From the IMG/VR virus record IMGVR_UViG_3300009509_000004, positions 32,001 through 96,000 of that record: a stretch of 64,000 nt of DNA. One strand, given 5' to 3'. Positions 10,443 through 64,000 of the stretch are shown here, one piece after another. This DNA comes from a virus. The stretch's first letter is position 1. Each line of letters begins with the position of its first letter. The notes under the pieces are model-generated. The model saw only the letters and a list, made by a program, of their open reading frames with translations. It did not search any database and was not told the origin of the DNA. A program made the position numbers and the translations under genes.

Positions 10443-13400
10443 TATGCCACCCCCTTCATCGGAGCAGCGCCGTGCTCAAGCATCGCCCTGCGTTGCCACG
10501 GGGTGGACTTGAACCCTGACCTGTCCTGAATCTCCTGCTTGTGTCTTGCGCTCGCAACGTTGATCGACTCGCCGTCAACGCACATCTTGTTGTTGATGTC
10601 GATGGTGCGCTTGTCCTCAAGCTGAATCTCTGCTTTGACCTCTGGCTTTTGCGCCTGCCGTTGTTTCTCCATCGCCTTGAGATCGCCGATTGCCGCAACT
10701 TGATCCTTGAGCAGCGCGATCTGTTCAGCCGTCCCTGCCTGTGCTTGGGTCTGGGCTGCCTGAACCTGCGGTTGTGCTGCCGCCGCTGCCGCTTTTGCCG
10801 GCTCTGCGCCTTTTAGAGTTGCTGCAACAGTAGGTACAGCCTTGTCCAGTTGCGCAGCAATTTCGTCACTCTGAATGCCTCCCTCCATCCATTTCTGAAG
10901 GGAACCAAGATCAACTCCCAGCTTCCCTGCGAGCGTATCAGCACCAGGGATCTTGCGGATGAGTTTGATCACCACGCCCATGACTGCCCTCAGCGGCATG
11001 GTCAGCGCGTTGAAGATGCCGATGCCGACCCGTTTGAGGCCACCCAGGAAGTCGCCTTGGAACATCTGGATGATGCCGCCAAACACGTCCTGAAACACCC
11101 TCTTGATTGTGATGATGGGCGTCTTGAACAGCGGGATCAAGAATGACACGATCTTGCCGATTGTGTTGACCACAAAGCCAACGACCTCGATGAGAGCAAT
11201 CAACATTGCTGAAATGAAGTTGCCGATGGTCGTGCCGACCTCGACCCAATTGACCTCGACCGTGCTGCCACCAGACGTGAACTCTGCCACGACATCGTTG
11301 ATCTCTGCCTTGATTTCTGCCACCACCCCGCTGAACGTCTCAACGATGGTGTTCCAGACGTTCATGAAGGTGTTTTTGATCTCTGTCCAATTTGCCATCA
11401 GGGCATCGCCCGCCGCCTTCAGCGCGGTGAGTGGCCCCTCGATGAATCCCCATACTGTGTCCATCAACCAGACAAACACATCAATGACCATGCCAAAGGC
11501 ATCAGCAGCGACACTGGCAACCCAGAGAACGCCGTTGGCGATTGCTCCGCCAACTTCATCCCACTTGATCTCCATGTCGTCCAAGCCCTGGAACCATGAC
11601 CCAAAGATGGCGTTGAACCTCTCTTTGATTTTGGCAACTGTGGTCTCGATTTTCTGAACTGCTTGGTCCCAAACCGCCTTCCACTTGTCAATGACCGCCC
11701 CGATGCCTTCATCCCACTTCTGCTTGAACCCGTCAATGAACGGTGTCCAAACGTTGTTGTAGAAGTCCATCACGGCCTGCTTGATGTTGCCCCACACCCT
11801 GACCAGGGTGTCGCCAATTGACTCGCCTTCCTTCCTGATGAACAAGAATGCAAGGGCAACCGCCCCCGCAACGATGACGATGGGCCAGAACGCCCCTGCG
11901 AGCAACGCCAGCCCGCCCTTGATGACCGCAAACGCCCCAAGCGCGATGGTCTTGAATGCCGCAAACGCCTGAATCAACCCGCTGACCATGAAACCAAAGG
12001 TCACAAGGCCAAGAATGATGGGCACCATCGCGCCTGCCACAATCGCAAAGATGGTGGCATATTTGGCAATCTTGCGCACGCCGTCCTTGCCAAACTTGTC
12101 CTCAAGCGTCTTGCCCAGCTCCTTGACTTTGGCCACAACGCTGTCCCACGCATCCCTGAGCGTGTCGATGGCATCTTGCAGCCCCAGCGCGATCTGCAGG
12201 GCTGTGCTCCCGTGTTCCTCTTCAATCTTCTGCAGTGTCTCCATCTCAAAGATTTGAGAACGGATCTTGTCAGCATCCCTGGCTCTGGCCGCCTCGACCT
12301 CTGACATTGCAGCGATCTCTTGCTCAATCTGCCTGCGCTGCGCCTGGCTCAATTTCTTGTTGCTGTCCAGCGCCTCTTGCAATACCTGGGTGCGCAACTG
12401 CCTCTGAGCGTCAGCCGCCCCCGCCGCGCCGCTGAATGCAAGGTCAATCTGCTGCTTGGAAGCATCCCGCCTCGCCTTGACCATCTCGTTGATCTGCTGA
12501 AGCATCATGTTCTTGCGCTTCTCAGACAGATCGCTGATGGATTTGACTCCAGCCGCTTCCAAGTGCCGTGTCTTGAGCGCTTCTGCTCGCCTCTTGGTCT
12601 CAGCCTCGATGGCAGACTCAACCGCCCTCTTGCGCGCCTCGACCTGCGCTGATGACAACTGCTCTTCACCTATCTGCATGCGGGAAATCACCTGAAGTGC
12701 TCCCAGCATTGAACTCCTGTATTTGTCCGTGACGCCAGCCGCCTCAAGCCGCTTGCTCGACTCACGTGCAATGGCCTGAGCGCTCTTGGCGTTCTCCATG
12801 TTCTCCTTTTGTCTGATCTCGTTGAGCCCTTCCAGGCTGAACAGCACGCCGTTCAAGCTGTTGGTCATCTGCTCGATGACTGGCGTGAAGCTCTTGAGCA
12901 GCGGTCCAAAAATGCCGATGCTCACCGACTCGACTGATGCCCCAAACAGTGTTAGTCTGCCCAGGAAGTTGTCAAGCCGCTTGTTGGCCATCTCTGTGGC
13001 CGCCCCAACGCCAGCACTGGATGCGACAAGCTCATCTTGCAACTTGTCCATCGACTCCTTGCCAGCAACTGCCAGAGCGTTGTATGCACGCGCACCCCTG
13101 ATGCCAAACAGCTCAGTGGCGATGCGCGCCCGCTCCGTGGCGCTTGGGATCTTGGCCATCCTCCTGCTGACCTGGTCAACGATGTCGCTCACCTTCCTGA
13201 GCGTTCCATCTGCGTTGGTCAGTGACAGCCCCCAATCGTTGATGATCTTCTTGCCCTCTCGCCCTGGCTTGGATAGCTTCACCATCATGTTGGTGAATGC
13301 CGTTCCAGCCAGCGATCCCTTCAGGCCTGCATCCGCCAGCTTGCCAAAGATGGCAGTTGTTTCCTCAAGGGACATCCCAAGTGATTTGGCCTGGGACACG

Positions 13401-55893: not shown

Positions 55894-56400
55894 CTATTGG
55901 ATGACGAATGGCCCCTTTGGACCTGTGGCGATGGCCCCGCTGTAGAATTGCTTGAGCAATCCCCAAAGCGCCTGTCTTTGTGCATGTGGAACCACGTTGA
56001 CCTCGTTTTCGCCGTCCCAATGCCGCCCTGGGATGCGCCGCCAAGCGTGAAGTGAATCCTCGTTGTATGGCGTTTTGACGATGTAGGTGCCTGCGTGGTC
56101 AACAATCTTGACCGCAACGCACCTTTTCTCGATGCGATCTGCCAAGTTGTGGAATCCCAGATCCCTGAGTCTCGCAAGCGGCTCAACCGCGTCCATCCCG
56201 TTCTGAACGATGGCGATCTTGTAGACCAGCTGGTTGGCCTCTTTGCGGTCTGCCTCGCTGACCTCGACCTTGTTGAGAAGTCTTGCCCGACAATCTGGGC
56301 CCATTCCCGCCTCGACTGATGCCGCGTCAACCAACGGTTTGCCGCAGGCTGCGCAGTGGGTTGCGAGAATCTTGGTGGTTGGTGCTGTTTCGTATGACAT
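55894..56400 (-). CDS. DUF6011-like Zn-binding protein
   Basis: CAACGKPLVDAASVEAGMGPDC matches the DUF6011-type signature; preceded by the repeat promoter and AGGAGAACGG. Confidence 0.7.
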   Translation of the reverse strand: MSYETAPTTKILATHCAACGKPLVDAASVEAGMGPDCRARLLNKVEVSEADRKEANQLVYKIAIVQNGMDAVEPLARLRDLGFHNLADRIEKRCVAVKIVDHAGTYIVKTPYNEDSLHAWRRIPGRHWDGENEVNVVPHAQRQALWGLLKQFYSGAIATGPKGPFVIQ

Positions 56401-56440
56401 GCCCGTTCTCCTTTCAGGTGGTTTGCCTTCCACCTTTTCT

Positions 56441-56503
56441 TCAAGTATAGTTGGCTTGCTTCCATAAGTCAAGAAAAAACGACCTCAGAGACAACTTTTT
56501 TTG
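56441..56503 (-). promoter_or_regulatory. Repeat promoter copy 1 (TTGACT-17-TATACT)
   Basis: Same upstream A7GTTG...GGTCGT6C box as the other copies. Confidence 0.85.
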
Positions 56504-56856
56504 TATGCCTGATACAGCGCAACGTTCAACGTTGCCGTCCTGGCCGGTTTCTGGACAAGCCTTGTGCCGTTTGTGTGTTGCGCAAGCGCATCGAGCCATC
56601 CCCCTGTGTAAATGACCACTGGAAGTGGGCACCTTTCAATCATCACCCTTCCCCCGCCCAACGGCACATCCCAATCACTAAGCACCACGTCATACTTCCC
56701 TGTTGCCGCCTCGACCAGCCCCTGTTGTACTGTGTAAACTGCCTTGACTTGCTTCCAGTGGTCCTTGAGTTGCCTCTCAATCGCCCTCGCCAATGTTTCA
56801 TCATCTTCAACCACAAGCAAACTGAGCCGCCTGATGGTGCCCTCCATTCCAATCAT
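56485..56856 (-). CDS. Single-domain CheY-like response regulator
   Basis: LLVVEDD, YDVVLSD (phosphoacceptor), PVVIYTG and QKP are all present. Confidence 0.85.
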   Translation of the reverse strand: MIGMEGTIRRLSLLVVEDDETLARAIERQLKDHWKQVKAVYTVQQGLVEAATGKYDVVLSDWDVPLGGGRVMIERCPLPVVIYTGGWLDALAQHTNGTRLVQKPARTATLNVALYQAYKKSCL

Positions 56857-56877
56857 TTTTTCTCCTTGGTGGAAGTG

Positions 56878-56901
56878 AAAAGGGCACCCAACGGGTGCCC
56901 C
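56878..56901 (-). terminator. Intrinsic terminator
   Basis: AGGGCACCC-3nt-GGGTGCCCT stem running into a T tract on the minus strand. Confidence 0.75.
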
Positions 56902-56925
56902 TCTCGCTCCTATGTTGTCGCCCTG

Positions 56926-57939
56926 TCAGGCGATGGCTTCCAAAATCATCTCAGCCTCATCCTCTGCCCTCGGATCCAACGACCAACGCTTGATTCCCCT
57001 GAAGCGCTTGACGTCAACGTCAATCGGATTCAGGAAGCGAACAAAGCTGCCGTTGATCTCGACACCTTCTGGGCTGATGATACCGTCTGTGACCAGCTGC
57101 TCAACGATCTCCTTGGCGCTCTTGCTCTCGCCCTCTTTGGTGTCTGTCACAACGTAAACACCGCCCGCGTGGCGCTTGCCGCACTTGCGCTTGGCCTCGA
57201 CCTTGACCAACCGCTCTTCAACCGTCCTGAAGCCTCGCTCTTTTTCCATCTGGTCCTTGACCACCTCGGTGTCCTCTGCCTTCAGAATATACTCAACCGC
57301 GTCAGGGAGAAACAAACCAAACACCTTGGCGTCTGGAAGTCTGCCCGTGCCGCCGCACGTTTCGCACATTTCCTTGTCCAAAACGTTGGCGATGTTGAAT
57401 TTTTGCGGCTGATGAAGCCAGTAGTTGTATTTGCGATAGTCCCAACGCTCTGACTTGAGCCCCTCGCCGTTTGCGACTGTAGCGTGGCCGCCTGTGCCGC
57501 CCTCGACATGATCTGACATGCCGCTGATCTCGCCTTGGAGTTTGAGCGCCTTCTGCGCCCTGCGCTCGATGAGCTTGTTGATGCGGTCGATGTCGGCCTG
57601 GCCGCCTTCTGCGTCGCAAACGCCCTTGTCGATGCTCTCTTGGACGCCCTTGGCGTTGTCTTCCAGATCCTGGATCTCCTTTTGGAGATTTTGGAGCGCT
57701 TGCTTGGCCTTGCGCTTTTCTGGATTTTCGATGGTGCCGAGACAATCCGCGCACTCGTGGAAGCTGCCCTCATCGTGCGCGACGAAAATGACGGTGCCCT
57801 CTTGCGTGAGCGCCTGCCCTACGTCTGCGTTGGGTAGCCTCTTGGAAATGCCCTGCGTGACCGCCTCGCCCGTCCAATCCTCGATGGACTTGTAGTGCTC
57901 TGACCCGACCCACATGAGATAGCTTTGCTTGATTTCCAT
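56926..57939 (-). CDS. Early protein with a split CxxCxGT Zn finger and a coiled-coil insert
   Basis: CADCLGT ... CETCGGTG flank a coiled coil; KCGKRHAGGVY; start moved to MEIKQ, after AGGAGAACGG. Confidence 0.75.
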   Translation of the reverse strand: MEIKQSYLMWVGSEHYKSIEDWTGEAVTQGISKRLPNADVGQALTQEGTVIFVAHDEGSFHECADCLGTIENPEKRKAKQALQNLQKEIQDLEDNAKGVQESIDKGVCDAEGGQADIDRINKLIERRAQKALKLQGEISGMSDHVEGGTGGHATVANGEGLKSERWDYRKYNYWLHQPQKFNIANVLDKEMCETCGGTGRLPDAKVFGLFLPDAVEYILKAEDTEVVKDQMEKERGFRTVEERLVKVEAKRKCGKRHAGGVYVVTDTKEGESKSAKEIVEQLVTDGIISPEGVEINGSFVRFLNPIDVDVKRFRGIKRWSLDPRAEDEAEMILEAIA

Positions 57940-57980
57940 GTCCGTTCTCCTTTGTTTGGTGTTTGCCCTCACCATCTAAT

Positions 57981-58055
57981 ACAATTATAGTTGGCTTGCT
58001 TCCAGAAGTCAAGAAAAAAACGACCTTGGAGGCAACTTTTTTTGTCTCCACGTCC
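57981..58055 (-). promoter_or_regulatory. Repeat terminator-promoter copy 2
   Basis: TTGACT-tctggaagcaagccaac-TATAAT. Confidence 0.9.
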
Positions 58056-58453
58056 TACAACTTGGTGTAGCCCTTTTTCTGCTTGGCCTTCACCAGATCG
58101 GCAAACACGTGTTCTGCCTTGCCTTGGGATGGATACTTGCCCTTGATCTGCCTCTGGAGAGAATGCGTGCGCCGCCCCCACTCGATTGTCACCTGGAAGT
58201 CGCCATCTGCAAGCCTGTCCAAGTGGACGTTGTACACCTTGTCCGATGTCCCTTGGCGATAGGCCAAGTTGGTCGTCACGATCCTGGCTGCCTCTGTCGC
58301 CCCGTGTGCGTTCTTTGTGTCCAGCGCGTCTGCTATGACGTCTGGTATGGCCTTGGCCTCTGCCGCTTCCCTCCGCACATCCTCGACACTTTTCAGCACG
58401 CCCTGCCCAAAAGTGCCCTCCCTCATCGCCTTTCTGATTTGTTCGAGATCCAT
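58055..58453 (-). CDS. WGR-domain protein
   Basis: GTSDKVYNVHL...VTIEWGRR...F..LVKAKQKKGY; the true start is MDLEQ inside the 404-aa ORF. Confidence 0.85.
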   Translation of the reverse strand: MDLEQIRKAMREGTFGQGVLKSVEDVRREAAEAKAIPDVIADALDTKNAHGATEAARIVTTNLAYRQGTSDKVYNVHLDRLADGDFQVTIEWGRRTHSLQRQIKGKYPSQGKAEHVFADLVKAKQKKGYTKL

Positions 58454-58463
58454 GATCCACCTC

Positions 58464-59297
58464 TCAATCGAAGCAACCCGTGTTTCGCCAGTACACCTTG
58501 AGGTCTGGGTCGAAATACACGGTGTTGTCCGGTGACTCGTATGTTTGCCCCTTCTTGGCCCCTTCCCGCTCAAACGCCACCACGTAGGAATTGACGATGA
58601 ACTCGCCGTTGCTGAATCGCAGCTGCGTCCAGCCCTTGTCGCAGAGCGCTTCCAGCGCGTTGTCGCTGATGGAGCACGGCAATTTGCGCTCTGGCTGCCT
58701 GACCTTGAGGATGTGATCGGGGTGGATCCAACGGACATCGCTTGGGCCTCTGAACCGTTTGCCCATCGCTGCCCCCATCGCCTTGAGCATCGCCAGATCC
58801 GACTCGATGCCCCTGAGATTGCGCTCGATGCCGACCTTGCCCGACTGGAAGTTGACTTTTGCCACCCGCTCCCACTTGCTGCCGTCCCTGTAATTGACCA
58901 ACACCTCGTCACCGATGCTGATTTTTGTGCCGCTGGGTGCGTTGCGCCAAAATTGTGACCCGTTGTAATCCAGATCGCCGATTGCCGCCCTGCCTCGCTC
59001 TGCCCGCGCCTGCTTCCGTTCTTGGACTTCCTGCTGCGTGCCTTCCATCTGTCCCAACGCCTCGTTGAGCTGCTCCTGGGTGTATGTGCCCTTGGGCAGC
59101 CCCAAAAGCGCCTCGCCCTTGACCGTCCAAGCGTAGGTTTTGCCTGTGCGCTCGATGGGCGCAAGCGTGTACTCTCGCTTGCCTGCGTATTTGCCCCGCC
59201 TGATGTACCTGGCGCTTTGGATGACGCAATCGATCCTTTTGCCTTTCGACATGATGCTGACCGCGTCACCTACCTTGAGTGCTTTGAGATCTGTCAT
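58464..59297 (-). CDS. Early protein with tandem SH3/KOW-like beta barrels
   Basis: LKVGDAVSI and ISIGDEVLVNY segments; AGGAGAACGG RBS. Confidence 0.65.
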   Translation of the reverse strand: MTDLKALKVGDAVSIMSKGKRIDCVIQSARYIRRGKYAGKREYTLAPIERTGKTYAWTVKGEALLGLPKGTYTQEQLNEALGQMEGTQQEVQERKQARAERGRAAIGDLDYNGSQFWRNAPSGTKISIGDEVLVNYRDGSKWERVAKVNFQSGKVGIERNLRGIESDLAMLKAMGAAMGKRFRGPSDVRWIHPDHILKVRQPERKLPCSISDNALEALCDKGWTQLRFSNGEFIVNSYVVAFEREGAKKGQTYESPDNTVYFDPDLKVYWRNTGCFD

Positions 59298-59351
59298 GCC
59301 CGTTCTCCTTGTTGGGTTGCCAACCCTCTTTGTTTTCTACTGAGCTGCCAC

Positions 59352-59639
59352 TTACAGCGCTGAAATTGCCGCCTCGATGTCTTCTGCCGATGCTCCGTTG
59401 AATTTCCCAAACTCCCTGACGCCTTTTTCGGTGATTTCTGCGAAGTAGTGCTTGACCTTGCGGGTGCGCTGCTCGCTGAAAACCTTGATGAGCCCTTCCT
59501 CGGTGAGCTGCTTGACCGCCTCGCCATATCCTGCCTGGAACCAATCTGGGCTGCGAAAGTTGGTGCCCAACTCGATGATGCCGCCGTTGGTGTTGAGGAT
59601 GTTGATGAGAATGTCTTTTTGCGCCTCGTTGAAATTCAT
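59352..59639 (-). CDS. Small winged-helix-like protein
   Basis: AVKQLTEEGLIKV...EITEKG. Confidence 0.65.
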   Translation of the reverse strand: MNFNEAQKDILINILNTNGGIIELGTNFRSPDWFQAGYGEAVKQLTEEGLIKVFSEQRTRKVKHYFAEITEKGVREFGKFNGASAEDIEAAISAL

Positions 59640-59650
59640 CGTGACCTCCT

Positions 59651-59731
59651 ATTCTTCAATTATAGTTGGCTTGCTTCCAGAAGTCAAGAAAAAAACGACC
59701 TTGGAGGCAACTTTTTTTGGCTCCATCGTTC
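59651..59731 (-). promoter_or_regulatory. Repeat terminator-promoter copy 3
   Basis: Core identical to copies 2 and 5. Confidence 0.9.
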
Positions 59732-59826
59732 TCCACCTCCTTGACGATGTGTGTTTTTTATACACACACCTGCCCGTGGCCGCCTGGCTGGGCAGCCGCC
59801 TGCGCGCCCCGCTGCCGCCGCCGTGC

Positions 59827-60003
59827 CTACTGGCGGTGTGGCGGCTTGACCCGCTTGACCTTGCCCGCCTTGGTGTTGCGGGAGTGGTTGGCCTTTGAGC
59901 GGGAAAAAAGGGTGCGGCAGAATCCGTCGTTGCGGTCGTTGTAGCTGCCGACCTCGATGAAAAGCGCCTTGCGGATGGAGATCTGATTTGCGTTGTTGGT
60001 CAT
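59827..60003 (-). CDS. 58-aa basic protein
   Basis: Translated by hand as MTNNANQISIRKALFIEVGSYNDRNDGFCRTLFSRSKANHSRNTKAGKVKRVKPPHRQ; directly behind the repeat promoter and leader. Confidence 0.65.
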   Translation of the reverse strand: MTNNANQISIRKALFIEVGSYNDRNDGFCRTLFSRSKANHSRNTKAGKVKRVKPPHRQ

Positions 60004-60020
60004 GTCCGTTCTCCTTTGCC

Positions 60021-60101
60021 CTATTCTTCAATTATAGTTGGCTTGCTTCCAGAAGTCAAGAAAAAAGTTGCCTTGGGGCCAATTTTTTTTGACCCCAAGG
60101 C
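60021..60101 (-). promoter_or_regulatory. Repeat terminator-promoter copy 4
   Basis: 13-bp stem (60070-60082/60089-60101), then a T tract, then TTGACT-17-TATAAT. Confidence 0.9.
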
Positions 60102-60113
60102 GTGACACCTCCC

Positions 60114-60341
60114 TCAATAGACGATCCAACCCCGCCCCATGTTGTCCCTGCGTCGTGGGATGTCCTCTGCCGGCACGTCCAACTTCCCTGCGTACACCCC
60201 GACCATCAGCGGATCGTCGCAGACGATCCCAACACAAGTGGAACCGTACATACAACGCCCCGAATATGTTGGGCGCACGCTCGCCTCGTATCCGTCTGAC
60301 TCCAACGCCTCCACGATTTTCTCTGCTTGCTCCAACGTCAT
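60114..60341 (-). CDS. Small conserved phage protein
   Basis: YSGRCMYGSTCVGI...DNMGRGWIVY pattern; AGGAGAACGG RBS. Confidence 0.7.
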   Translation of the reverse strand: MTLEQAEKIVEALESDGYEASVRPTYSGRCMYGSTCVGIVCDDPLMVGVYAGKLDVPAEDIPRRRDNMGRGWIVY

Positions 60342-60354
60342 GTCCGTTCTCCTT

Positions 60355-60660
60355 TCAATCCAAAGTGAAGCGCACGACCCAGCCTGAACCGTGCGCGGCG
60401 TGAGTGTATTGAACGGGTGCGCTCGCCTGCCGTAGCTGACCGCCGTGGAGGTGGTGGAAGTAGGGTTGCCGGATGAGCGCCCTCAAAACCACCTCCTGGA
60501 CCTTCCTGATGTCCTGGAAGTCTGCTGGCGAGTCTGCGAGCACGGTGACCTCTGCTCCGATGACCTGATATGGGTCGTGCTGGCGACCTCTCGCTGCCGC
60601 TTTGACCATTAGACTGGGCCTGAACCCAGCCTTGATCGGATTTTGGTGGATGACCTTCAT
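60355..60660 (-). CDS. Hypothetical protein
   Basis: 4-nt start/stop overlap with the upstream gene. Confidence 0.55.
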   Translation of the reverse strand: MKVIHQNPIKAGFRPSLMVKAAARGRQHDPYQVIGAEVTVLADSPADFQDIRKVQEVVLRALIRQPYFHHLHGGQLRQASAPVQYTHAAHGSGWVVRFTLD

Positions 60661-60842
60661 TCTCGCTTCCCCTCGACCTCGACTGAGAATTTCAACTCAA
60701 TGTCGTATCCGTTCTCAGGATTTTCGTGAACAAAATCGACCATTTCCTTGAGCGCTTCCATTGCCTCCTGCCAGGAAAGATCCCGATCTGTACACCGACC
60801 GTCCACCCAAAATTCCACTTTTTTCAGTAGTTTTGTCTTCAT
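60657..60842 (-). CDS. Small hypothetical protein
   Basis: MKTKLLKKVEFWVDG start after GGAGAACGG. Confidence 0.6.
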   Translation of the reverse strand: MKTKLLKKVEFWVDGRCTDRDLSWQEAMEALKEMVDFVHENPENGYDIELKFSVEVEGKRE

Positions 60843-60855
60843 TGCCCGTTCTCCC

Positions 60856-61335
60856 TTAGCTGCTTGCCAAGCCAAAAAATACAAAAACTTTGCCGTGTCG
60901 CCCCGCCATCCCGTAGCGCTTTTTGTACTCGACCGTTGCGCTGTAGCCCAACTCGATGGCGAGCGCTGGCCCCCACTTGTCGTTGTAGCGCCTGGCGTGA
61001 CTGAGCGCCCAGGTGCGATACTGCTTGGGAACCTGACGGATGAAATTGCGCTTGGCCTCTTTGTCGTCTGAATCCGACTCCTGGAAGAATGCCGCCGCCT
61101 CGATCCAACCGATGGCCTTGCCGACCTTGACCTGCTTGTTGGGAAGCTGGATGAGGGTGTAACCGTGCTTGGAAGCGATGTCGCCGCTGTAGCTGTAGAG
61201 ATCCTCATCGCAAGCGTCGTATCCGTCGCAAGCCATATCCGCCCGCCTCTCGCTGGCCGCCTGGTCTTGCGCGTTGCGGAAAGCCGCCCCGATGTCTTTG
61301 CCAAATGCCGTCGTTGAGAATTCACATGCGCCCAT
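60856..61335 (-). CDS. Conserved phage early protein
   Basis: MGACEF...YSGDIASK...DKWGPALAI...FVFFGLASS pattern. Confidence 0.7.
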   Translation of the reverse strand: MGACEFSTTAFGKDIGAAFRNAQDQAASERRADMACDGYDACDEDLYSYSGDIASKHGYTLIQLPNKQVKVGKAIGWIEAAAFFQESDSDDKEAKRNFIRQVPKQYRTWALSHARRYNDKWGPALAIELGYSATVEYKKRYGMAGRHGKVFVFFGLASS

Positions 61336-61356
61336 TTCCGTTCTCCTTTTGTTTGC

Positions 61357-61440
61357 CCTATTCTTCAATTATAGTTGGCTTGCTTCCAGAAGTCAAGAAA
61401 AAAACGACCTTGGAGGCAACTTTTTTTGTCTCCAAGGTCG
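61357..61440 (-). promoter_or_regulatory. Repeat terminator-promoter copy 5
   Basis: Perfect 11-bp stem (61405-61415/61430-61440), T7, then TTGACT-17-TATAAT. Confidence 0.9.
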
Positions 61441-61450
61441 CCATCTCCCC

Positions 61451-61786
61451 TCACTCTCCTTTCACAAACCAATCGACAGGGGCAAGCCCCAAGTATCCGT
61501 TCAGCCGCTCAAATACCTCGTTGGCGTCCAAGCAACCCTCGATCCGACTCCGCACCGCCTCCACGAAACACCGCGCCCCGATTGTCGAGACAACGCCGTT
61601 GAGAATCAGCCAACGGCCATCAGCGATCTCGATCTCCACCATCTTCCCATCTTCCTCAAATAGAATCTGGGCAGCTGTCTCGCCCTCGCCCACCTCCCAC
61701 GTATAGTGGGCACCCTCGCCATCGCCGTCCACGAAAAACCCAGCAACGATGGCTCTCTTGGTCTCTTTGATTTTCTTCTTCATCAT
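61451..61786 (-). CDS. Hypothetical protein
   Basis: AGGAGAACGG RBS before MMKKK. Confidence 0.6.
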   Translation of the reverse strand: MMKKKIKETKRAIVAGFFVDGDGEGAHYTWEVGEGETAAQILFEEDGKMVEIEIADGRWLILNGVVSTIGARCFVEAVRSRIEGCLDANEVFERLNGYLGLAPVDWFVKGE

Positions 61787-61822
61787 CCGTTCTCCTTTCA
61801 AGTTGGTATGCCGTCCAACCAT

Positions 61823-61897
61823 ACTTCAATTATAGTTGACACCCCCGACTATTTTTGGTCCATTTTGCAGGTTGGAGGCAATTTTTTTTGTCTCCAC
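61823..61897 (-). promoter_or_regulatory. Variant repeat promoter (TATAAT kept, -35 altered)
   Basis: caacTATAATtgaag and the upstream A-tract/TTGCCTCCAA box are retained; no TTGACT at 17 bp. Confidence 0.55.
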
Positions 61898-62131
61898 GTA
61901 CTTTTTTTGAGAGCCAATTTTTTTTTGCCTCCACGTTCTTTTTCTCTTGACTTCTGCTCCCCAATTTTCTCAATTTCCAAAGTCTATTGAATAGATTGCG
62001 GAGAACCCACGCCCGCTTGGCTCGTTTGCGTCGTGCCTCTCGCTCAAGCCCCGCTTGGATATGCTCCACCCATGCCGCTCGATGTGGGTTTTCTTGGCTC
62101 TGCCGATCTTGCAATTGCGGAAAGCCACGTC

Positions 62132-62191
62132 AAAAAAAGTTGGCTCTGAAGTCTCTTTTTTCTTGACTACAACTTCTTTTGGCGTTATACT
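62132..62191 (+). promoter_or_regulatory. Opposite-strand copy of the repeat promoter
   Basis: A7GTTGGCTCTGAAGTCTCT6C, TTGACT (62163-68), 17 bp, TATACT (62186-91). Confidence 0.8.
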
Positions 62192-62196
62192 ATACT

Positions 62197-62337
62197 TGCG
62201 GGGTGTATGCTGCATTCGCGTGCTACCGTTTGCCTGAACCTTCTAACGCGCCGCGTTAGAGCAAGGCAGATCTCCCCCTTCCTCCCCAGCGGTGCTGGTA
62301 GGTACCAGTACTGTCCTGGATGTGCTTCCACCTGCTC
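62197..62337 (+). ncRNA. Candidate small RNA
   Basis: Downstream of the plus-strand promoter; two hairpins flank a C-rich tract; no convincing ORF. Confidence 0.45.
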
Positions 62338-62550
62338 CTACGGCAGAACGTGGACCACGGTGAAGCCTCTCGACTGCGCCGTGGCCTTGGCCTGCTGGCG
62401 TGCCTCGGTGAAGGTGCCGGTGAAGCTGACCCAATTATCCATGTTGTCTGGATCGTCGCCCAGAGCGAACATCCACGCCCCAAAACCCTTGGGTTGCTTC
62501 ATGTGACTGCGGAAGAATGCTGCGGTTTCAACTGATACTCTCTTTGCCAT
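62338..62550 (-). CDS. Small conserved phage early protein
   Basis: SHMKQPKGFGAWMF...GTFTEARQQA...VHVLP; behind the repeat promoter. Confidence 0.7.
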   Translation of the reverse strand: MAKRVSVETAAFFRSHMKQPKGFGAWMFALGDDPDNMDNWVSFTGTFTEARQQAKATAQSRGFTVVHVLP

Positions 62551-62565
62551 GTCCGTTCTCCTTTG

Positions 62566-62642
62566 CCCTATTCTTCAATTATAGTTGGCTTGCTTCCAGA
62601 AGTCAAGAAAAAAACGACCTTGGAGCCAACTTTTTTTGACCC
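62566..62642 (-). promoter_or_regulatory. Repeat promoter copy 6
   Basis: TTGACT-17-TATAAT with the conserved leader. Confidence 0.9.
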
Positions 62643-62671
62643 ACCACTTCCACTGAGCAATGCCCTGAACA

Positions 62672-62705
62672 GAAAAGTAGGAGTGCCCCACAACGGGGCA
62701 CTCCT
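62672..62705 (-). terminator. Intrinsic terminator
   Basis: AGGAGTGCCCC-5nt-GGGGCACTCCT followed by ACTTTT on the minus strand. Confidence 0.8.
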
Positions 62706-62735
62706 TGGGCAAATGGAGAACGGATGACGATCTGG

Positions 62736-63344
62736 TCAGCGCTGATCTGTCTTCAAGATCCCAAAGCGCTGCGTGAGCTTGTATTCATCGATGAGCTGAT
62801 CTGCGATGTCCTTGTTGCCCAGCTCTTGGGCAAGCATCGTCAGCACCAACCCGATGATGTTGTGCGTGTAGTTGCCATTCTGTTGGAGTGCTCGCCTGAT
62901 GCGCGATCTCGCCTTGGTGACTGCTTCTGGCTCGTTGTCCGGCACCTTGTCGCAGATGCACTCGACCCTGCCGCAGATCTCACAAAGTGGGCGTGGGGCT
63001 GGCTTTTCCGATTTGCTGGGTGCCTTCTTGGCCTCCCTCGCTGCCTCCCCTGCCGCCTCTCGTGTTTTCGATTTGATCTTGACCTTCCCCTTGGGCTTGG
63101 TCTGCTTTTTGCCTCCTTGCTGTGTTTCTGCGTGCTGGCCCTCGCTGGGTGCCTCTGGTGCCGTGTAGCCTTTCTCTCTGATGTCGCCGTGAGCTTCGCA
63201 ATCTGGATTGCGACAGAATGCGTATGGGTCAGACTTCTTGACTGACCTGTACTTGCCTGCCGCCTGAAGCTCTGGGTCTGGCATGTGCTTGAAGAGAATC
63301 TTGCCGCACGCGGGACAAGGTGGCTGTTTTGGTCTGCCTGCCAT
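62736..63344 (-). CDS. Zn-finger-containing protein with a basic linker
   Basis: CPAC...CRNPDC and CEIC...CIC; AGGAGG RBS. Confidence 0.7.
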   Translation of the reverse strand: MAGRPKQPPCPACGKILFKHMPDPELQAAGKYRSVKKSDPYAFCRNPDCEAHGDIREKGYTAPEAPSEGQHAETQQGGKKQTKPKGKVKIKSKTREAAGEAAREAKKAPSKSEKPAPRPLCEICGRVECICDKVPDNEPEAVTKARSRIRRALQQNGNYTHNIIGLVLTMLAQELGNKDIADQLIDEYKLTQRFGILKTDQR

Positions 63345-63356
63345 GGTAGCCTCCTG

Positions 63357-63941
63357 TTATGCCCGCTCGATGACGGTTGCTAGGTTGAAAAGTGCCTCGC
63401 TGATTTCGCTGCGCCCCTTGACCTCTGCGACCTCTGCGAGACTGAGGGTGCGCTCGATGGCGCTGTCCCTGTCGTAACTGAACTGCTGCGTTTGCGCGAC
63501 TTGAAGCGCCTTGTCGGTGTACTCTTTGGCCGTCGTGAACTCGTGACCGTTGAGCGCCCGCTCGATGACCTGAAGCGCCTCTTGAACGATGTGGACGGTG
63601 ACCTTGCCGTAGCTGGTGCTGCGACGGTTGCCTGCGTAGGTGGTGCGCGTCCAAACCTGGTAGCCCTTTGCGCGCTTGATTTGCTGGGCCTGCTCCCAAA
63701 GCTCCTTTGCGATGGCCCAAGTGAAAGTGACCTCGGTGATCTCGACTGCCGACTTGACAAACGCCTTGCTTTCGCCGTGTCGGGTGCTGGCCCCGCCGTT
63801 GCGCGCTTCCTTGGCGCTGCTTACCTCGCCCCAACACCGCACGATGGCTTCTGGCTTGGCGCGAAAGTCGATGGCCTGAACGATGTACTTGCGACCCGTT
63901 GCTTTGACTTCTGCGATGCGTTCTTTTCTGATTGGCTTCAT
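63357..63941 (-). CDS. Hypothetical early protein
   Basis: Behind the repeat promoter and AGGAGAACGG RBS. Confidence 0.7.
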   Translation of the reverse strand: MKPIRKERIAEVKATGRKYIVQAIDFRAKPEAIVRCWGEVSSAKEARNGGASTRHGESKAFVKSAVEITEVTFTWAIAKELWEQAQQIKRAKGYQVWTRTTYAGNRRSTSYGKVTVHIVQEALQVIERALNGHEFTTAKEYTDKALQVAQTQQFSYDRDSAIERTLSLAEVAEVKGRSEISEALFNLATVIERA

Positions 63942-63956
63942 TCCCGTTCTCCTTTG

Positions 63957-64000
63957 CCCTATTCTTCAATTATAGTTGAAGCCAATCCAGAAGTCAAGAA
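63957..64000 (-). promoter_or_regulatory. Repeat promoter copy 7, cut by the window edge
   Basis: TTGACT-tctggattggcttcaac-TATAAT. Confidence 0.85.

Follow-up and report, generated by a model that had tools for sequence, protein, structure and literature searches.

Short cis-antisense RNAs that are transcribed from host-type promoters facing the surrounding phage operon are known from lambda (OOP) and P22 (sar). OOP is complementary to the end of cII and sar to the ribosome site of ant, and both act through duplex formation together with convergent transcription; each RNA is 70–80 nt long and has its own terminator. To our knowledge, only a small number of regulatory RNAs encoded by phages have been described, and none from the uncultured lineage considered here. 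A lone antisense promoter, P001, is found in the near-one-strand genomes of Pseudomonas phage LUZ19 and other Phikmvvirus members; it is a phage-RNAP promoter, conserved across the genus and shown by ONT-cappable-seq, for which control of read-through has been proposed as the role (PMC10914365). In Firmicutes, the conserved sRNAs RsaE/RoxS are encoded on the chromosome and end in an intrinsic terminator; short C-rich motifs, several per RNA, lie unpaired in their loops and can pair with G-rich Shine–Dalgarno sequences (PMC2790875, PMC8216469).

The locus described here lies in a window of 64,000 nt that comprises bases 32001–96000 of the 106,758-bp IMG/VR phage record IMGVR_UViG_3300009509_000004; positions below are those of the window unless the genome is named. 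The phage genome has short terminal repeats and a G+C content of 54 %. Its portal protein has distant cultured relatives, ~31–34 % identical, among siphoviruses of Aeromonas, Rhizobium and Pseudomonas, and uncultured relatives at up to ~58–65 % identity. Almost all credible genes are on the minus strand, and AAGGAG stands ahead of almost every gene in the genome. The locus is situated within an array of small early genes, in which a near-identical module precedes each gene or small gene group. In order, the module consists of a terminator-like box, a T-run, TTGACT, 17 nt, TATAAT and a shared leader with AAAGGAGAACGGACATG at its end. This 17-nt leader core is present with no more than two changes ahead of nine minus-strand genes (window 63955, 62564, 61349, 60355, 60017, 59311, 57953 and 56414; genome 16564) and has no such copy on the plus strand. 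Thus, an antisense RNA running across one leader would be complementary to all nine.

In all of the cassettes (window 56444–63997) the promoter spacer complements the upstream box; the cassettes are therefore quasi-palindromic, and a read-through RNA in either direction can form a hairpin with a U-run behind it. Of the hairpins formed in the sense direction, those of the copies at 60031 and 61368 are strong terminators (−25 and −24 kcal/mol, respectively) and the others are weak. Just upstream of the Shine–Dalgarno sequence, hairpins in several of the leaders (window 56400–61830, genome 16560–16600) have differing stems, including GGTGG..CCACC, GGTG..CACC, GGTTGG..CCAAC and GTTGGA..TCCAAC, with the constant loop (A/G)GGCA(A/T)A; this covariation of the stem around a fixed loop may mark a protein-binding site. 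DNA-metabolism genes adjoin the early array on the minus strand at genome 96476–98831 (L077:476-2831), namely those for a dCMP/cytidine deaminase (8e-25), a uracil-DNA glycosylase superfamily protein (1e-29) and a 5′–3′ exonuclease (8e-26). A stand-alone receiver-domain protein is encoded at window 56485–56856, its Response_reg match of 29.5 bits being just below the 30.2 cut-off.

The pattern TTGACT-N17-TATAMT is expected 0.07 times in the window and is found eight times, of which seven matches (56444..63997) lie on the minus strand and one, at 62163–62191, on the plus strand. The initial annotation had singled out this plus-strand promoter, and it is indeed present, a sigma-70-type TTGACT-17-TATACT with the same upstream box as the minus-strand copies (AAAAAGTTGGCTC, exact at 62134–62146 on the plus strand). 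Its −35 is a consensus hexamer, the spacer measures 17 nt, and with a −10 in which A2 and T6 are retained the match is 10 of 12 positions. The promoter had also been called the sole plus-strand copy, which is correct for intact copies in the whole 106,758-bp genome but overlooks a degenerate plus-strand cassette 216 nt upstream (61908–62005). The latter retains the box, the T-run, TTGACT (61947–61952) and a leader-like stretch (ATTGAATAGATTGCGGAGAACC) that runs to ~62005, but it lacks a start codon, as well as a good −10 at the proper distance. In the intact copy, the upstream box, T-run and −35 (TTGACT, 62163–62168) occupy 62129–62168 of the plus strand. Together with 62601–62640 of the adjacent minus-strand cassette they make up an inverted repeat of 40 nt (88 % complementary). 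Beyond the −35 no homology to the other cassettes is left: the spacer is a different one, and neither the shared leader nor the shared ribosome-binding site (RBS) is present. Despite this, a good −10 is found at the right spacing, which by our own rough estimate has a chance of ~1 %. The −10 region (62186–62196, plus strand) is a tandem TATACTATACT, with TATACT (62186–62191) at 17 nt and a second copy at 22 nt from the −35. From this spacing we infer a transcription start at about G62198.

The stretch beyond this promoter was said to hold no credible gene. By a codon-usage log-odds score trained on the 49 long genes of the phage, for which real genes give 0.45 ± 0.20, that description fits the plus strand, where all frames from 61830 to 62337 are negative (the 99-aa plus-strand ORF scores −0.38 per codon), and a plus-strand RNA would thus be non-coding. 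It does not fully fit the minus strand, on which an 81-aa ORF (61970–62215) that spans the plus-strand promoter and has no Shine–Dalgarno sequence is weakly gene-like. This ORF scores +0.18 per codon overall and +0.34 over its last 53 codons, a level reached by only 3.5 % of stop-free off-frame windows. A 48-aa minus-strand ORF scores −0.18 per codon; no family match was found for it or for the 99-aa ORF. The 81-aa protein matches only itself among 5.8 billion proteins and, among 1.8 billion representatives, only itself and one low-complexity sequence. On the minus strand at 62224–62236, the 81-aa ORF has AGGCAAACGG 13 nt ahead of its ATG; this sequence resembles the shared leader minus its GGAGAA Shine–Dalgarno sequence and may be a relic of a former minus-strand cassette. 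The ORF itself could represent either a weak gene or a relic, and the reading of the plus strand is the same in either case.

The 143 nt after the predicted start fold at −55.3 kcal/mol on the plus strand (z −3.27, with 0 of 200 shuffles as good), and the same 143 nt fold at −44.6 kcal/mol on the minus strand (z −0.14, with 87 of 200 shuffles folding as well). Values of z at or below −3.27 are seen in 2 % of 200 genome windows and in none of the 100 plus-strand windows among these, and the difference in folding between strands is equalled at none of 100 sampled genome positions. The structure signal of this stretch, in the top 1–2 % of the genome baseline, is real but modest. Both of the hairpins and the C-rich tract reported in the initial annotation sit where they had been placed. 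Ahead of them is a weak 5′ hairpin (62202–62227; −10.5 kcal/mol on the plus strand and −3.6 on the minus), which favours the plus strand because of its G-U pairs and is non-significant when taken alone (z −0.8). Hairpin 1 (62228–62271, plus strand) has an outer stem, UUGCC/GGCAA, around the perfect 8+8 palindrome TCTAACGC-GCC-GCGTTAGA, and folds on either strand (−19.3 kcal/mol, z −4.5 on the plus; −16.9, z −2.3 on the minus). The palindrome was also considered as a repeated operator; both it and its half-sites are unique in the genome, and the idea was rejected. Hairpin 2 (62289–62314, plus strand) has 11 bp and no U-run after it, and its three G-U pairs account for the strand specificity that had been claimed for it (−16.3 kcal/mol, z −3.5 on the plus strand versus −7.1, z −0.5 on the minus). 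Between the two hairpins is the C-rich pyrimidine tract TCTCCCCCTTCCTCCCC (62271–62287, plus strand), in which CCUCC and UCUCC occur; as proposed, the tract is predicted to be exposed, with an unpaired probability of 0.81–0.86. It is the only pyrimidine run of at least 17 nt in the genome, where ~0.4 would be expected by chance (own estimate). Such a tract could serve as a generic anti-Shine–Dalgarno sequence or as a loading site for Rho.

The proposal of a discrete sRNA of ~140 nt fares less well. No intrinsic terminator follows hairpin 2, and none is predicted on the plus strand between 62200 and 62580; the transcript would therefore enter the next gene antisense, and an RNA of ~140 nt would need processing or Rho. 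The gene so entered is a 70-aa early ORFan (62338–62550, minus strand), the product of which matches only itself among 5.8 billion proteins. It has a canonical RBS and a canonical early promoter (62578–62606, minus strand; 11 of 12 matches) that is convergent with the plus-strand promoter, and no minus-strand terminator is found after it. Read antisense, the cassette of this gene (62583–62637, plus strand) holds a 12-bp interrupted stem (62583–62631) and a run of seven T residues (62631–62637). In the predicted hairpin (−17.7 kcal/mol) the promoter spacer pairs with the box, leaving a 5-nt bulge and a large apical region; a simple terminator scan with a loop limit of 8 nt missed it. The hairpin and its U-run are the putative 3′ end of a plus-strand RNA of ~440 nt.

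Such a read-through RNA would include an anti-leader stretch (62545–62580, plus strand). This stretch is exactly complementary to both the leader and the RBS of the 70-aa gene, and near-exactly to eight further early leaders. Its predicted pairing with the nine leaders, all on the minus strand and none on the plus, is −32 to −68 kcal/mol, and its predicted accessibility in the full-length fold is moderate (0.43). Pairing by the C tract, at −11 to −17 kcal/mol, is 3–5 times weaker. Against the initiation regions of 96 phage genes the C tract gives a median of −11.9 kcal/mol, compared with −9.4 for internal windows (p ~1e-6), a level about equal to that of a generic 16S-like tail, and its best partners genome-wide are scattered G-rich sites rather than early leaders. 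The specific anti-Shine–Dalgarno role first suggested for the tract is not borne out by these values, given that the pairing is generic and that initiation regions do only slightly better than gene-internal ones. If the transcript has any anti-RBS activity, the anti-leader stretch is the stronger candidate.

A plus-oriented copy of the early leader, GGGCAAATGGAGAACGGATG (62702–62726, within 62672–62735), is located right after a terminator hairpin at 62679–62705; on the mRNA of the 202-aa gene it reads as an anti-leader ahead of a terminator and U-run. This leader copy and its ATG were considered as the start of a gene reached by read-through and were rejected, since the 173-aa ORF scores −0.32, a value seen typically in ORFs that shadow a real gene on the other strand.

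A 78-aa protein is encoded on the minus strand at G000:C1:96035-96271 (L077:35-271), 35 nt past the end of the window and 1.7 kb from the locus. No Pfam or PHROG match was found for it. The AF2 model of the protein has a pLDDT of 87, and the ~35 best structural matches consist entirely of Hfq, LSm and SmAP proteins (Z 6–7.7 over 57–64 residues, nearly the whole domain; Foldseek E-values 0.007–0.08). Five homologues, 54–77 % identical, have the invariant motif EIELNGDPxD. The protein appears to represent an undescribed phage Sm-like family. Its presence would make RNA-based control in the region more plausible, with nothing that is specific to this RNA. The 3′ end typical of Hfq-type sRNAs, a Rho-independent terminator with a U-tail behind a seed region, is absent from a ~140-nt form of the RNA; the predicted order in the ~440-nt form, anti-leader then hairpin then U6–7, would fit it.

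Searches for relatives of the locus were negative within the collections covered. No blastn match was found in 50,697 phage records, and two portal relatives with complete genomes lack the cassettes altogether; portal relatives at 58–65 % identity have no DNA match to the region. Patterns describing the promoter cassette had no matches in viral contigs or in metagenome contigs, and the 70-aa and 202-aa proteins have no relatives in viral contigs. The C tract had 33 matches in viral contigs, all of them attributable to chance and without flanking similarity. Covariance models of Rfam gave no match in 61800–62700, whether the gathering score or a limit of E up to 10 was applied, and ARAGORN predicted no tRNA or tmRNA.

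Through the Sm-like protein, a distant syntenic relative was found, IMGVR_UViG_3300049561_000013 (L080), which keeps the gene order Zn-ribbon, Sm-like protein and 202-aa homologue (E 3e-15) and has a recognisable cassette promoter and leader. L080 has a G+C content of 40 %, and its cassette (11754–11890) reads AGTCAA-TTTTTTTC-TTTACT, with two −35 hexamers back to back around the T-run as a divergent pair of promoters. The antisense member of this pair (TTGACT-16-TATAAT) gives the best sigma-70 match of the early region; it adjoins the sense cassette promoter in back-to-back orientation, with its transcription directed into the 3′ end of the preceding gene. The DNA is AT-rich, and promoter-like sites are no commoner in it than in shuffles (20 versus 16 ± 3.9), so the antisense match is at most a hint in support of antisense transcription. 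Neither the structured leader nor the C tract was found in L080. If anything is common to the two phages, it would be antisense transcription and not the body of an sRNA.

All sampled words of the phage stretch at window 61000–63500 were found in 20 DNA runs from six studies, which cover marine sediment, soil, mangrove and other sources from 2020 to 2025; no RNA run was among those listed. Four runs from four studies (X1, X9, X13 and X17) yielded one identical contig of 1173–1178 nt, spanning ~61405–62582, with zero differences and similar depths of 9–27×. The phage might be a clone of very wide distribution, or its identity across runs might reflect contamination from a shared laboratory source or reagent. 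Inversion between the arms of the 40-nt inverted repeat was considered and rejected, as no flipping of the segment is visible: the four runs have the given orientation, with no strand-change joint.

Taken together, the features are best explained, in our view, by a cis-antisense transcript convergent with the 70-aa early gene, with possible action in trans on the shared early leader, a tentative reading to which we give somewhat less than an even chance. Under this model, a host sigma-70 promoter built from the box and −35 module of an early cassette, in reversed orientation, would fire a non-coding plus-strand RNA from about position 62198. Its first ~120 nt would fold into the 5′ stem, hairpin 1, the open C-rich tract and hairpin 2 as a plus-specific structure, which probably stabilises the RNA; alternatively, the C tract might load Rho. 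As there is no intrinsic terminator, the RNA would continue antisense through the 70-aa gene, against the promoter of that gene, and could reach the palindromic cassette at 62583–62637 with its hairpin and U-run. This would yield a cis-antisense RNA up to ~440 nt long, expected to lower expression of the 70-aa gene and of its downstream read-through by polymerase collision and by formation of an RNA duplex. Since the 3′ part of the RNA complements the leader and RBS of nine early genes, it could also act on these in trans. A bolder version, in which one RNA is the master off-switch of the early regulon through its 3′ anti-leader, with the Sm/Hfq-fold protein helping it to bind and the 5′ part adding stability or a second anti-Shine–Dalgarno element, seems improbable to us.

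The main rival to the antisense model is that the plus-strand box and −35 arrived by recombination or inversion among the repeated cassettes, and that the promoter may fire to give an RNA without selected function, the hairpins and C tract being incidental or the remains of a former cassette. We consider this possible, if rather unlikely. The 40-nt inverted repeat shared with the adjacent cassette and the decayed sister cassette upstream fit a decaying rearrangement product and to that extent count against the antisense model, as does the lack of a homologue of the locus in the searches made. Furthermore, every element is unique in the genome, the ORFan neighbours and the absence of the region from relatives point to fast turnover, and the significance of the fold is modest. 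An additional difficulty for the antisense model is that its RNA must cross ~370 nt against a stronger convergent promoter. What a relic explains poorly is the −10, which is good and stands at exactly 17 nt though homology ends at the −35, next to a TATAC duplication that looks like a repair of spacing; likewise, three helices all favour the plus strand. The four runs show no decay variants either, which says little because the population is apparently clonal.

The remaining readings differ in the strand or the part of the transcript to which they assign function. The discrete trans-acting sRNA of ~120–140 nt, the exposed C tract of which would block GGAGG-type ribosome sites of phage or host mRNAs, draws on the predicted exposure of CCUCC and UCUCC (81–86 % unpaired) between stable hairpins, on the standing of the tract as the sole pyrimidine run of its length in the genome, on somewhat better pairing with initiation regions than with internal windows and on the Sm/Hfq-fold protein encoded nearby. 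Targeting of Shine–Dalgarno sequences by C-rich motifs is, moreover, an established mechanism in RsaE/RoxS (PMC2790875, PMC8216469). We nevertheless hold this reading to be of low probability: hairpin 2 is followed by neither terminator nor U-tail, the pairing resembles that of a 16S-like tail, falls 3–5 times below that of the anti-leader stretch and has its top targets outside the early leaders, about 0.4 such tracts are expected by chance, and neither an Rfam match nor a homologue was found. Function might instead lie on the minus strand, where the stretch would be a spacer between cistrons of the 70-aa operon, with a weakly translated 81-aa gene behind it and with the purine-rich tract and hairpin 1 acting on the mRNA. 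The missing minus-strand terminator after the 70-aa gene, the +0.34 of the last 53 codons, the leader-like AGGCAAACGG without GGAGAA 13 nt before the ATG and the ability of hairpin 1 to fold on this strand would all suit such an arrangement. It is nonetheless doubtful, as the 81-aa ORF has no Shine–Dalgarno sequence although AAGGAG precedes almost every gene of this genome, lacks a homologue among 1.8 billion representative proteins and would have to encode a whole reversed promoter cassette, and as the whole minus strand folds no better than shuffles, with hairpin 2 failing there. The initial annotation further offered a sponge for a CsrA/RsmA-type protein, titrated by a minus-strand RNA. Its six GGA motifs within 143 nt of the minus strand were confirmed by eye, but three of the six fall in a single purine run, and the motifs lie outside stable hairpin loops on a strand whose fold (z −0.14) is equalled by 87 of 200 shuffles. 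With the dedicated promoter driving the opposite strand and no match to the Rfam models of CsrB, RsmY or RsmZ even at E up to 10, we regard the sponge as very improbable.

The locus is at present a well-formed prediction that comes from one sequence. Should the RNA be made, a lytic-type phage would be timing or damping a whole set of insulated early cassettes with one antisense transcript; a single transcript could damp all of the cassettes because they have one leader in common. A phage-borne Sm-like protein would then also have its likely RNA clients close by.

In comparison with the known systems, the likeness to CsrB/RsmY/RsmZ is confined to several GGA motifs in a short non-coding stretch of the minus strand; unlike in those RNAs, the motifs are not in loops, the strand has no dedicated promoter or significant structure, and there is no covariance-model match. 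With RsaE/RoxS the locus shares a C-rich sequence that is predicted to be unpaired between hairpins, but here it is one long tract, of phage origin, with no terminator and no homology or Rfam match. In kind, the locus resembles P001, OOP and sar. Like P001, it is a single promoter of a repeated type that is reversed near the early region of a near-one-strand genome; it differs from P001 in being of sigma-70 type, in having no conserved counterpart and in being predicted from sequence. Like OOP and sar, it would use a host-type promoter directed against the phage operon to produce a non-coding RNA complementary to a neighbouring early gene. There is no sequence similarity to either RNA, and the target here is a 70-aa ORFan; no terminator follows the structured part, the predicted RNA reaching up to ~440 nt. 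In further contrast to OOP and sar, the complement fits eight other leaders too, the leader being repeated.
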